A program made the position numbers. A DNA stretch of 64,000 nt, taken from Escherichia coli (GTDB lineage Bacteria; Pseudomonadota; Gammaproteobacteria; Enterobacterales; Enterobacteriaceae). Shown in pieces: positions 27,001 through 30,000 of this stretch. The stretch lies in assembly GCF_050320075.1 (NCBI RefSeq), contig NZ_CP190018.1. One strand, given 5' to 3'. Within the stretch, counting starts at the first letter, position 1; each line of letters starts with the position of its first letter.

Positions 27001-30000
27001 ACATGCTTTTTTTTATTTGTTAAAGTACATACGCTTTGATGTATACCCCCGTTATCAGCGGGAAACAGAGTGGCGATTAAACAACGGCGTTGCTCTGTTT
27101 CTGATACAGCAACGACCACTGCGTCCGGTTGTGTTGCAAGGCGCACGAACTCCGTGAAAACCGCGTCGGGAGTGATCCCCGGAGAAAAGTGAGATAACCT
27201 CAGGGCTGGTAACCCGTGACGGCGCTGAATTTTCAGCGCCGTTTTTTATTGGTGTTTTCTGCTTGACTTTATTTATGGCTGTTTTAAAAATGAGCATGCT
27301 AAATAGCTGCTTTGCAGCCAACCAATCTCCCGGTGGTCTGAGAGGGAGGCTTACGCGACCACACTGTCATCTTCGGATGACCAGCCAATGTTCCAGCAGT
27401 CTGAGAGGAGCGCCTTCGGGTGACTGCCAGCCAATGTTTCAGCGATCTGAGAGAAACGCCTTCGGGTGATTGCAATATCCTCGTAGCCTGAAAGGGGATG
27501 CCTTTATGGCGGTACATCCGTTTAGCCTCTGGGAACGGATATCACCACTGGTGATTGAGGTACGTTTAACTGCACAGACAGCCGGAAATTCAGCTGATTC
27601 CGGCATCCCCGACGGGAACTATCACTCCCGTCAGGGCTGGTGATGTTCTCCGTCATATCTTTTTTTACTCCATGGAGAAATCATCATGTCTGCAACTAAC
27701 TCTACTTCTGCAAAAACTGAATACTTCAACCTGACCATGAAAGGTCTTGGGTATCTCAGCAATGTTCGTCAGGTTAACCATCAGAACGGTTCGTTCCTCA
27801 GCTGCGTGATTAACGCACTGAGTGGACCAACGGACAATCCGTCCTATACGCGTTTTGATGTCACGGTTGCCGGTAAAGAGGCGACCACCCTGATCTCCCG
27901 CTGCCAGAAAGCAGTGGATGAGGACCGCAAGGTACTGCTTGGTTTTACGTTAAGCAACCTTGCCACCGACATTTTCACCCTGAACAAGGGGGAGCATGCC
28001 GGTGAGCAACGCGTCAGCCTGAAAGCCCGCCTGATCAAGGTGGACTGGATAAAAATAGGCCAGGAGCAGGTCTATAAGGCTGAAAAAGCGGAGTCCCAGC
28101 CACCGAGCCATGGCACCACAAAACGTGAATACGCAGAAGACTCCTTCTGATCGCGTATTTTTCTCACTGCCTCCCTGATAAAGAAAACAGACCACCATCA
28201 GGGAGGTCTGTTTTCTTATTGTTTTTACTGAACTTTAAGGAAACAAATTATGACTTCTACAAACGGTATTCTCGCAGCTGCGGCAGGTTATACATTACCT
28301 CTGGAAATACTCAAAAGTGGGCGCGGATATTATATTGGCACTCAGTGTTCTGAAGGACCGGTATCCCGTGAATCAGAAGAGTATTTCAAAAAATATGAGC
28401 AGGCTGAGCGGACGCTGAAAAATGGCACCTGGACACAACGTCATGCCTGGTAATGAGGAGGTGCTATGGCTTCACGCGGCGTAAACAAAGTTATCCTGAT
28501 AGGACATCTGGGGCAGGATCCGGATATCCGGTATTTCCCCAATGGCGGTGGCGCTGTGGCGAATCTGTCACTGGCGACCAGCGACACCTGGCGGGATAAA
28601 CAGAGCGGTGAAATGAAGGAAGTTACTGAATGGCACCGCGTTGTTCTCTATGGAAAACTGGCTGAAGTTGCCGGCGAGTACCTGCATAAGGGGTCGCAGG
28701 TGTATATAGAAGGCCAGCTTAAAACCCGTAAATGGTTTGACCAGCAGAATGGTGTGGACCGTTATTCAACTGAGGTTGTTGTGGGCGTGAATGGTGTCAT
28801 GCAGATGCTGGGTTCATCGCGTCAGCAGGGCGCTTCCGGTAATGGTGCTTCAGCACTGGCACAAGGGGGCCAGGGACATCCGCCGAAGACGACCGGACAG
28901 ACTGGTCGTGCCACCCGGACGACGTCAACGGGTAATGGTGCTCCACCAATGGACTTTGACGATGATATCCCCTTTATGGGGCTCGGGTATGGCATGGAAC
29001 GACGAATTATTCATGCCATGTAATATTAACCACGGGGCGTTACGCCCCACTTTTTTATCCGGAGGTTCCGTGAGTGAAAAAGTTAACAAAATCACTATGA
29101 TTCATGACGGGGCGTTCAAGAAGACGCTTGAAGATCCCGCCGCAGTAAGGGACTTTCTTGAACAGGTCTTGACACACGATCAGATATCCCGCTGTAATCT
29201 TGATACAATAGAAGTTGAAAAGAATTCGTTCGTGACGGAAAGTTTGCGTCAGCATGCCTGTGATGTTTTGATCAGCATGAAGACAAACGACGGCAGGGAC
29301 GGATACATTTATACCTTAATCGAGCACCAGAGTTCGCCGGATAAATTCATCCCGCTGCGTATGATGCGATATATCCTGGCTGTAATGGAGCAACATGTTG
29401 AAAAGCATAAGTGTGCACCTGTGGTGATCCCCGTGTTGTTTTATCATGGTGCAATGCGGCCATATCCGTATCCGCTGAACTGGGTGGATTGTCTGGATGA
29501 CCCGGAGTACGGACGGGAGATTTATGGCGAGTCAAAGTCATTCAGTCTGGTGGATGTCAGTACGCTTGATGATGATGAAATTGAGCAGTATCGCCGGATG
29601 GCGGCGCTGATGTACACCATGAAGTCCGGAACTCAGGGTGATTTGATTGAGCTGATTGGTAAATCGATCACACTGACGGATAAGTATGGCAGTAGCATTC
29701 ACCTGAATACGGTGCTTACTTATCTGATGGAACTTTACCAGATGGATGTTGCTGAACTTTTTGAAGCAATATCCACACACTATCCCAGCCATAAGGGGGT
29801 GATTATGACGATAGCGGAACAACTGGAAGAGAAAGGTCGGGTTGAAGGTCTGGAGAAAGGCCTTGAGAAAGGCCTTGAGAAAGGCCGTGCTGAAGGCCGT
29901 GCTGAAGAGCGTCAAAAAGCGCTTGCAGAAACTTATGCATCTGTCCGTCGCATGAGCGATATGGGGATGTCAACGGAAGTTATTAAGCAGGCACTTCATC

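Follow-up and report, generated by a model that had tools for sequence, protein, structure and literature searches.

The 64,000-nucleotide stretch of Escherichia coli contig NZ_CP190018.1 analysed here (hereafter the window) is a chromosomal integrative and conjugative element (ICE) of the SPI-7/ICEclc family. The first part of its gene order comprises ParA, an SPI-7-type DnaB, a ParB-family protein, DUF2786, DUF2857, the STY4528 replication protein, an AcaB-like PFL_4669 protein and TopB; after TopB come an interval in which RefSeq annotates nothing, the STAXI motif, STY4534/DUF3577, a small open reading frame (ORF), SSB, PilL and type IV secretion genes. The topB gene (24977–26995, + strand) is followed by an AU-rich hairpin (26981–27015) and then by a stretch without a substantial ORF; positions 27000–27300 (301 nucleotides queried) are 100% identical to NZ_CP033635. 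We conclude that this interval very probably carries a real, independently transcribed gene for a structured non-coding RNA (ncRNA). The gene, its ends and its fold rest on sequence, comparative and literature evidence; its mode of action we infer.

Coding content and the 3′ end of topB

A first-pass annotation of the window, made from the sequence alone, had marked 27016–27250 as an ORF-less unit of roughly 200 nucleotides with its own terminator, and had proposed it as a candidate small RNA (sRNA). The absence of coding sequence was borne out: the only + strand ORFs across the interval encode 46 (TTG start, 27017–27157) and 40 (GTG start) amino acids, and neither is conserved. An 88-amino-acid minus-strand frame (27055–27321) had been rejected at that stage, and rightly so, as similarity to it is limited to close relatives; Pfam returned no match for either this frame or the 46-residue ORF. 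In 14 homologous loci the longest ORF across the element varies from none to 102 amino acids, insertions and deletions among homologues have lengths not divisible by three, and short start-to-stop frames 3′ of the CGGAG segment appear, on reading the alignment, in some lineages only. No reading frame is conserved, as expected of a free-standing sRNA gene, and a coding interpretation was dropped.

The hairpin downstream of topB had been taken for the terminator of that gene (26984–27015). It proved to be weak, with an 11-nucleotide loop, and was missed by a terminator scan; its stem is lost in two close relatives (loci L002 and L006) and the hairpin is absent in lineages B, D and E. Since it is weak and unconserved, topB transcription probably runs on into the element and would be a second source of the RNA. 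The hairpin overlaps the topB stop codon, and its T-run is the A/T-rich region just upstream of the −10 box of the RNA.

Distribution and synteny

A distant BLAST search found the element in 94 of 5426 complete E. coli genomes at 68–100% identity, always on the chromosome and always unannotated; one Citrobacter plasmid also carries it. Further loci were gathered by way of DNA patterns, the neighbouring DUF3577 protein and plasmid records. The DNA pattern applied to the genome collection was overly strict: apart from Pectobacterium polonicum, its matches were mostly random. The carriers include six E. coli lineages, Salmonella enterica (including SGI-4), Klebsiella oxytoca, K. michiganensis, Mixta tenebrionis, a Serratia species, Pectobacterium polonicum, P. 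atrosepticum and Dickeya dianthicola. The conservation in homologous ICEs on which the first-pass proposal was to be judged is thus borne out: at least 14 lineages, among ICEs and ICE-like plasmids of Enterobacterales, have the element at one syntenic position, always upstream of a sigma-70-like promoter, STAXI, DUF3577 and ssb.

The element is present in a single copy in the window (nhmmer, one match, 141.6 bits), with no extra copies near the other two STAXI copies there, and a scan of viral contigs gave chance matches only. It is missing from related ICEs and plasmids of Xenorhabdus, Photorhabdus, Pantoea, Duffyella, Erwinia, S. marcescens, E. ludwigii, Pseudomonas (pKLC102) and Ralstonia, and the copy in Rouxiella is degenerate. 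In E. coli NCTC9112 (locus L012; 1534–1707 and 3019–3068) an IS1414 interrupts the RNA gene near model position 172, and this split copy is a natural knock-out.

The association with topB can be broken in both directions. One Serratia ICE has the element and no topB, and topB is present without the element in six genera, including Photorhabdus, Xenorhabdus, Pantoea, Erwinia and Duffyella; the element is therefore an independent module, and more than a topB 3′ untranslated region (UTR).

Promoter, terminator and transcript

The following features delimit the gene:

27018–27026, + strand: extended −10 promoter, with TG at 27018–27019 and the hexamer TAAAGT at 27021–27026.
27033–27247, + strand: predicted transcribed region of about 215 nucleotides, from the nhmmer match and homologues, with no Rfam family.
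27033–27041, + strand: invariant 5′-terminal 9-mer GCUUUGAUG, identical in 23 of 23 aligned sequences and unpaired in the pseudoknot model.
27219–27247, + strand: intrinsic terminator, composed of ACGGCGCUGA, the loop AUUU, UCAGCGCCGU and a U-run (stem 27219–27242).

The conserved part of all homologues opens with GCUUUGAUG. Exactly 6 nucleotides before it, 13 of 15 lineages, including the topB-less ICE, contain the pattern TGnTAnnnT. Of the hexamer, T1, A2 and T6 never change, in upstream sequence that is otherwise without resemblance from one lineage to another. We read this pattern as the signature of an extended −10 promoter, which predicts a transcription start at G27033. On this comparative evidence the gene would have a promoter of its own, as a free-standing sRNA gene should.

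At the other end, the terminator proposed in the first pass at 27221–27250 is clearly present, with GGCGCTGA at 27221–27228 and TCAGCGCC at 27233–27240 forming most of a stem of 10–11 pairs (7 of them G-C) that is followed by TTTTT. Every lineage has a GC-rich hairpin and T-run at this position, each time of different sequence, so that the gene also has its own terminator. The unit drawn at 27016–27250 was therefore correct in its end and terminator, and its start has to be moved to approximately 27033, with 27016–27032 serving as the promoter. A further idea, that the terminator might simply be a second tandem terminator for topB, fails on the roughly 180 nucleotides of conserved, covarying structure (described below) and on the promoter.

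Strand-specific RNA-seq in P. atrosepticum SCRI1043 reported a 228-nucleotide transcript, fwd_38/reg_seq34, on the forward strand at 601635–601862, which was also predicted from its terminator and conservation (PMC4710047). The Rfam STAXI match in SCRI1043 lies at 602159–602313 (PMC4710047). In our P. atrosepticum locus (L062) STAXI occupies 2696–2850 and the element 2183–2403, and applying that spacing to SCRI1043 places the element at 601646–601866. The two intervals correspond, and fwd_38/reg_seq34, which lies in the HAI2 island, is almost certainly the same RNA. The transcript called for by the first-pass annotation has thus been recorded at homologous coordinates, the record being from this one species. 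The main table of that study labels it ‘STAXI sRNA, 3′ UTR: topB’ (PMC4710047), which is a mislabel. Between the RNA and the STAXI promoter, L062 also contains an insertion of about 230 nucleotides with a second terminator (approximately 2404–2640), which matches another published transcript, reg_seq34b (601860–602087).

The second half of that label corresponds to a different interpretation, in which the element would be a cis-acting topB 3′ UTR, or a terminator or insulator, with no function in trans. Table 2 of the P. atrosepticum study classes the transcript as ‘3′ UTR: topB’ (PMC4710047), and topB transcripts probably do enter the element past the weak, unconserved hairpin. The separate occurrence of topB and element described above argues against it, as does a conserved −10 box at a fixed distance from the 5′ end, and a simple terminator would suffice as an insulator, leaving some 180 nucleotides of covarying, pseudoknotted structure over. 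We regard this interpretation as quite improbable.

Secondary structure and pseudoknots

We segmented 25 distinct sequences by hand, verified that each segmentation reproduced its sequence, and counted pairs in 23 of the 25, with N for gaps; MAFFT left columns 1–244 of the alignment unchanged. The resulting model contains ten helices before the terminator (PK-b, P1a, PK-a, P2, P3 outer, P3 inner, SA, SB, P5 and P6), arranged in the window as follows:

27044–27047, + strand: 5′ strand of PK-b, UACC, pairing with GGUA in the P6 loop (27208–27211).
27048–27062, + strand: P1a hairpin, CCCG (27048–27051) with CGGG (27059–27062) around a 7-nucleotide loop.
27053–27058, + strand: 5′ strand of PK-a, UAUCAG, inside the P1a loop, pairing with 27101–27106.
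27063–27100, + strand: P2 hairpin of variable length, here 15 base pairs with several G-U, the loop carrying (A)ACGG(G).
27101–27106, + strand: 3′ strand of PK-a, CUGAUA, at the P2/P3 junction (covariation in 6 of 6 pairs; permutation test).
27109–27137, + strand: P3, with the outer helix GCAAC/GUUGC, a 3′-side bulge, an inner helix and a loop.
27138–27184, + strand: core H-type pseudoknot, AA followed by the interleaved stems SA and SB with P5 between.
27140–27144 with 27163–27167, + strand: SA, GGCGC with GCGUC (GCGYC across lineages).
27150–27154 with 27180–27184, + strand: SB, CUCCG with CGGAG, its strands interleaving with those of SA.
27155–27162, + strand: A-rich crossing strand of the core, UGAAAACC, in which UGAAAA is invariant.
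27168–27179, + strand: P5 hairpin, GGGA-GUGA-UCCC, stacked between SA and SB.
27185–27202, + strand: linker L4, semi-conserved (R)UGAGA..ACC in the alignments.
27203–27215, + strand: P6 hairpin, GGG/CCC, whose loop CUGGUAA supplies the PK-b GGUA (27208–27211).

The covariation on which the candidate was to be tested is strong across the ten helices. Their 54 pairs are 99.5% canonical over 1037 cells of the hand-curated alignment, 33 of the 54 are changed on both sides, and the covariation score reaches 0.46, where shuffles give 0.14; when partners are slid by 1–3 columns, 32–47% are paired and the score falls to 0.03–0.07. Every pair covaries in PK-a, P2 and both P3 helices, with all 11 pairs of P3 outer and inner changed on both sides. 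P2 differs in sequence in every lineage and shrinks to 5 base pairs in lineages C and D, and the hairpin is nevertheless always formed. The P3 loop is GCACAC in most lineages and GCGUCC here. P1a changes from C:G to U:A at two positions (its stem is 3–4 base pairs long across lineages), P6 from G:C to U:A, A:U and C:G, and P5 becomes GAGAGA/UCUCUC in Dickeya. In the core, where the strand order SA5, SB5, SA3, SB3 of an H-type pseudoknot is present, SA covaries at one pair (G:C in 10, A:U in 8 and G:U in 4) and SB is invariant. No pairing partner was identified for linker L4.

An independent check with RNAalifold on the unedited MAFFT alignment recovered P1a, SA, P5, P6 and the terminator with compensatory changes (pseudoknots cannot be drawn by this method). 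Folding energies relative to shuffled sequences gave z-scores of −3.56 for the + strand and −2.37 for the minus strand.

The two long-range pairings were examined separately. PK-a contains double substitutions between near-identical, indel-free sequences (U:A in the window against G:C in L002, and C:G in L010 against U:A in L037), and 3 of 6 PK-b pairs have changed on both sides, for instance from A:U to G:C in lineage E. We then compared whole loops with whole junctions, allowing no choice of register, and scored each lineage's own partners against those of other lineages. For PK-a the mean duplex energy was −6.5 kcal/mol with own partners and −2.7 with foreign ones (0 of 5000 permutations); for PK-b the values were −5.5 and −3.9 kcal/mol (2–3 of 5000). 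This test supports both long-range pseudoknots. A closure suggested by the minimum free energy fold, GUUAUCAGC with GCUGGUAAC, was rejected: covariation places its first strand with the P2/P3 junction, as PK-a, and the GGUA of the GCUGGUAAC strand pairs with the 5′ linker, as PK-b.

The core also survives on its own in a divergent relative from K. pneumoniae CP125156 (L084, 2993–3072), as AAGGCGC, CUCCGUGAAAAC, GCGCC, a hairpin and CGGAG. That sequence also has a P3-like hairpin and a terminator and lacks GCUUUGAUG; its 5′ GGGUAC complements GUACCC in the 3′ arm of its terminator.

The 44 G-U cells of the + strand would become C-A mismatches on the opposite strand, and GNRA tetraloops occur in P5 and the terminator of several lineages. 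Together with the orientation of the promoter and terminator, these observations indicate that the structured molecule is RNA of the + strand. They also bear on the idea, raised by the authors who described STAXI for that motif, that such an element might work as single-stranded DNA, here as a priming signal or structured site in ICE transfer or replication. The DNA-handling neighbours (TopB, SSB, the SSB-like DUF3577 protein and STY4528) would suit such a role. The G-U pairs and the GNRA loops in P5 do not, nor do a promoter and intrinsic terminator conserved in the same orientation and a reported transcript, and on reading the sequence we found no hairpin that rebuilds a −35/−10 promoter as in Frpo-type elements. 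We consider a single-stranded DNA function extremely improbable.

The proposal of an sRNA of about 200 nucleotides is therefore supported by synteny, covariation, a conserved promoter and the topB-less Serratia copy. Its degree of structure, which was not visible in the first-pass annotation, far exceeds that of a typical sRNA.

Comparison with known RNA families

Positions 27016–27250 have no match in Rfam 15 (4227 models; cmscan, E ≤ 1); the best overlap is that of RefA5 with the terminator hairpin (21.8 bits where 91 are required, E 0.53). Six divergent homologues likewise gave no Rfam match to the element at E ≤ 1, and ARAGORN found no tRNA or tmRNA. In the window, STAXI (RF01728, gathering score 40.5 bits) matches at 27365–27518 (139 bits), 55910–56069 and 58707–58860, and EFASI (RF02957, gathering score 51.2 bits) solely at 56547–56669; none of these copies is annotated by RefSeq in the identical E. 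coli record.

We considered whether the element might be one of these two motifs, and rejected both. STAXI gave no model match either in the interval or in the six divergent homologues. The two RNAs do occur in the same elements and the same intergenic region, STAXI starting 118 nucleotides downstream of the new RNA, and both are built of pseudoknots, lie near ssb and topoisomerase genes and are orphans in function. STAXI, however, is a tandem repeat of a small pseudoknot unit within the DUF3577-ssb leader, behind a promoter of its own, whereas the new RNA folds as one unit of about 215 nucleotides, without repeats, and has its own promoter and terminator; their sequences are unrelated. EFASI, another orphan motif of sRNA type that occurs around STAXI in Enterobacteriaceae ICEs, gave no model match, is about 130 nucleotides long and has STAXI upstream and integrase genes downstream of it, whereas the element lies upstream of STAXI.

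A wider likeness is to the raiA motif, a free-standing orphan ncRNA of about 200 nucleotides with several pseudoknots and many fixed nucleotides. RNAs of this type resemble the new RNA in size, pseudoknots, fixed nucleotides and free-standing transcription; they differ in showing no similarity at the level of Rfam models and in being chromosomal in Firmicutes and Actinobacteria, whereas the new RNA is confined to Enterobacterales ICEs.

Folds with several pseudoknots and fixed junction nucleotides are typical of ribozymes, and we therefore asked whether the RNA might be self-cleaving or otherwise catalytic. It has three pseudoknots, and its invariant nucleotides are concentrated in the junctions (AAG, CA, UGAAAA and CGGAG). 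No Rfam 15 ribozyme matched even at E ≤ 1, no cleavage-site signature was recognised, and the strand order of the core resembles that of ribozymes like the one of hepatitis delta virus in what we take to be a superficial way, with no P3/L3 and no J4/2. A catalytic RNA is, in our estimate, highly improbable.

The P. atrosepticum transcript is listed in its study only as an antisense or 3′ UTR sRNA, with no structure, family or function (PMC4710047). We therefore describe the element as a previously undescribed family of structured sRNA and an independent transcription unit, the transcript of which has been seen once and not recognised. In kind it is a free-standing structured sRNA of a conjugative element, resembling the orphan RNAs of other mobile elements, with an architecture that is unusually elaborate.

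The downstream operon

27263–27291, + strand: sigma-70-like promoter, not part of the RNA, with TTGACT, a 16–17-nucleotide spacer and TAAAAAT (−10 around 27285–27291).

This promoter is kept in all lineages between the RNA terminator and STAXI and is probably that of the STAXI/DUF3577/ssb operon. Its position separates the RNA gene from the downstream operon, and this bears on a reading of the element as a riboswitch or attenuator, in which a ligand or protein would decide between termination at 27219–27247 and read-through into STAXI, DUF3577 and ssb. The complexity of the fold is of aptamer grade, the terminator begins 1–7 nucleotides after P6, and reg_seq34b abuts the first transcript in P. 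atrosepticum, which suggests some read-through. A strong promoter ahead of the operon in every lineage would nonetheless bypass such a switch, and it places the element outside the leader of the operon. In addition, the terminator arms have no lineage-specific upstream complementarity (1479 and 723 of 5000 permutations), and no conserved antiterminator was found, the best partners of the arms lying at non-homologous sites. We view control by attenuation as very improbable.

The DUF3577/STY4534 protein (27686–28150; ‘ICE replication protein’ in the NCBI annotation) was modelled as an SSB-type OB fold with a pLDDT of 82, and its best matches in the PDB are bacterial and mitochondrial SSBs (E ~1e-4, target TM ~0.5). 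With the true SSB downstream, the operon would thus encode two SSB-like proteins. An equation of DUF3577 with ICEclc InrR could not be verified and was not used; P. syringae ICEs list a separate ‘regulator’ gene.

The DUF3577 leader has a feature of its own. The segment UUCUCCGU (27646–27653) can pair over 8 base pairs with AUGGAGAA (27672–27679), which is the Shine–Dalgarno region 7 nucleotides before the ATG at 27686, and conservation of both segments extends to ICEs without the new RNA. The sequences suggest that this pairing may control translation by sequestering the ribosome-binding site. The SB stem of the new RNA (CUCCG/CGGAG) resembles this pair. A 45-residue ‘hypothetical protein’ called by RefSeq at 27506–27643 starts in the last bases of STAXI (12-nucleotide overlap), spans the structured leader and was probably annotated in error. 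Elsewhere in the window, between the STY4528 gene and that of the AcaB-like protein, a long tandem repeat with a unit of about 36 base pairs (23003–24148) can be read as repetitive ORFs on both strands (381 amino acids minus, 323 plus).

Possible mode of action

In the explanation that we favour, an ICE-backbone ncRNA gene at 27033–27247 (+ strand, about 215 nucleotides) is transcribed from its own extended −10 promoter as far as an intrinsic terminator that also belongs to it, part of the RNA pool possibly coming from topB read-through. The RNA is predicted to be closed and compact, an H-type core flanked by the hairpins P1a, P2, P3 and P6, in which two long-range pseudoknots (P1a loop with P2/P3 junction, and 5′ linker with P6 loop) would shut the fold. 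Its fixed junction and loop nucleotides, freely varying helices and nearly dispensable peripheral P2 point to the folded particle as the working unit. Its action would be in trans, through a protein or small ligand that it binds, and not that of a linear antisense RNA. The likeliest partners would be TopB, the SSB-like OB-fold DUF3577 protein, SSB, or the pseudoknotted STAXI leader of their mRNA, and the RNA would then tune how much of the single-strand-nucleic-acid module is made, or is free, in the host of the ICE. A fold-dependent, partner-binding mechanism of this kind is put forward tentatively, as a possibility to which we give somewhat less than even weight.

An example of such a link is known from phage T4, where the SSB-type gene 32 protein binds the pseudoknotted leader of its mRNA and so regulates itself. 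The two cases share a pseudoknotted RNA beside the gene of a single-strand-binding OB-fold protein, and differ in that the T4 element lies within the regulated mRNA whereas the new RNA is a separate transcript; the parallel is one of analogy and not of membership, and by that analogy makes a link between the RNA and an SSB mechanistically plausible.

The more conventional alternative is a seed-pairing sRNA, whose 5′ GCUUUGAUG would pair with ICE or host mRNAs and whose body would act as stabiliser and as a terminator and Hfq or ProQ module. The invariant and unpaired first nine nucleotides and a terminator with a U-tail are what such an sRNA would have, and in 11 of 14 lineages an invariant CUCCGUG complements CAUGGAG, in the Shine–Dalgarno region 15 nucleotides before the DUF3577 start. 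This last match joins two invariant segments with no covariation, falls inside stem SB, and is one of about as many 7-mer matches as chance would give. The full complement of the 9-mer is absent from the mRNA-sense strand of the 64-kb window, where 7–8-mer matches are scattered at chance level and away from start codons; no convincing target for 27033–27041 was found in the window or the flanking loci. Some 45 invariant positions and three pseudoknots, moreover, exceed the needs of a scaffold. On balance we think seed pairing unlikely. A second GCTTTGATG, at 53192, is inside a coding region. Pairing with the STAXI/DUF3577 leader was also tried and set aside, as duplex folding was uninformative and the 7-mer matches were either invariant or ignored the U/C variation of the SA 3′ strand.

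Returning to the partner-binding RNA gene, several points weigh against it. The element is dispensable for the ICE family as a whole, given the genera that lack it, the IS1414-split copy of NCTC9112 and the degenerate one of Rouxiella. Lineages B and D have GGgTAGTGT and so lack the TG of the extended −10, the start at G27033 is a prediction from comparison, and the RNA-seq match assumes that the spacing is the same in both P. atrosepticum strains. Hand-fitting of the alignment to the structure inflates the paired percentage. SB, being invariant, is neither backed nor contradicted by covariation, which leaves the second core stem unproven, and RNAalifold offers in its place a pairing of CUUUG, from the 5′ 9-mer, with CGGAG; both sides are invariant and the two pairings are indistinguishable. 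An invariant, single-stranded 5′ end would be expected of a seed-pairing sRNA as well. Taken as a whole, RNA gene and mechanism together, we place the explanation a little below an even chance, an estimate that is a compromise between those for its two parts.

A bolder reading would make the RNA a new class with a complex fold of riboswitch or ribozyme grade that regulates islands of the SPI-7/ICEclc type. In one version it would bind the DUF3577 protein, SSB, TopB or a small-molecule signal, and would thereby time the DNA-processing operon and the excision, replication and transfer of the island; in another it would be a decoy against host defence. We hold this reading to be doubtful.

Implications for ICE biology

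RNAs with so much fixed tertiary architecture are uncommon, and are often ligand-binding, protein-binding or catalytic. In E. coli, Salmonella (SPI-7, SGI-4), Klebsiella and plant pathogens, ICEs of the SPI-7/ICEclc family have cargo for capsule, virulence and resistance, and the control of their DNA-processing genes is poorly understood. The element provides a family for Rfam and for genome annotation, and one published transcript label can be corrected. An RNA with three pseudoknots ahead of the STAXI/DUF3577/ssb operon is an unannotated player at a control point of these elements, and may help to explain the long-orphan STAXI motif.

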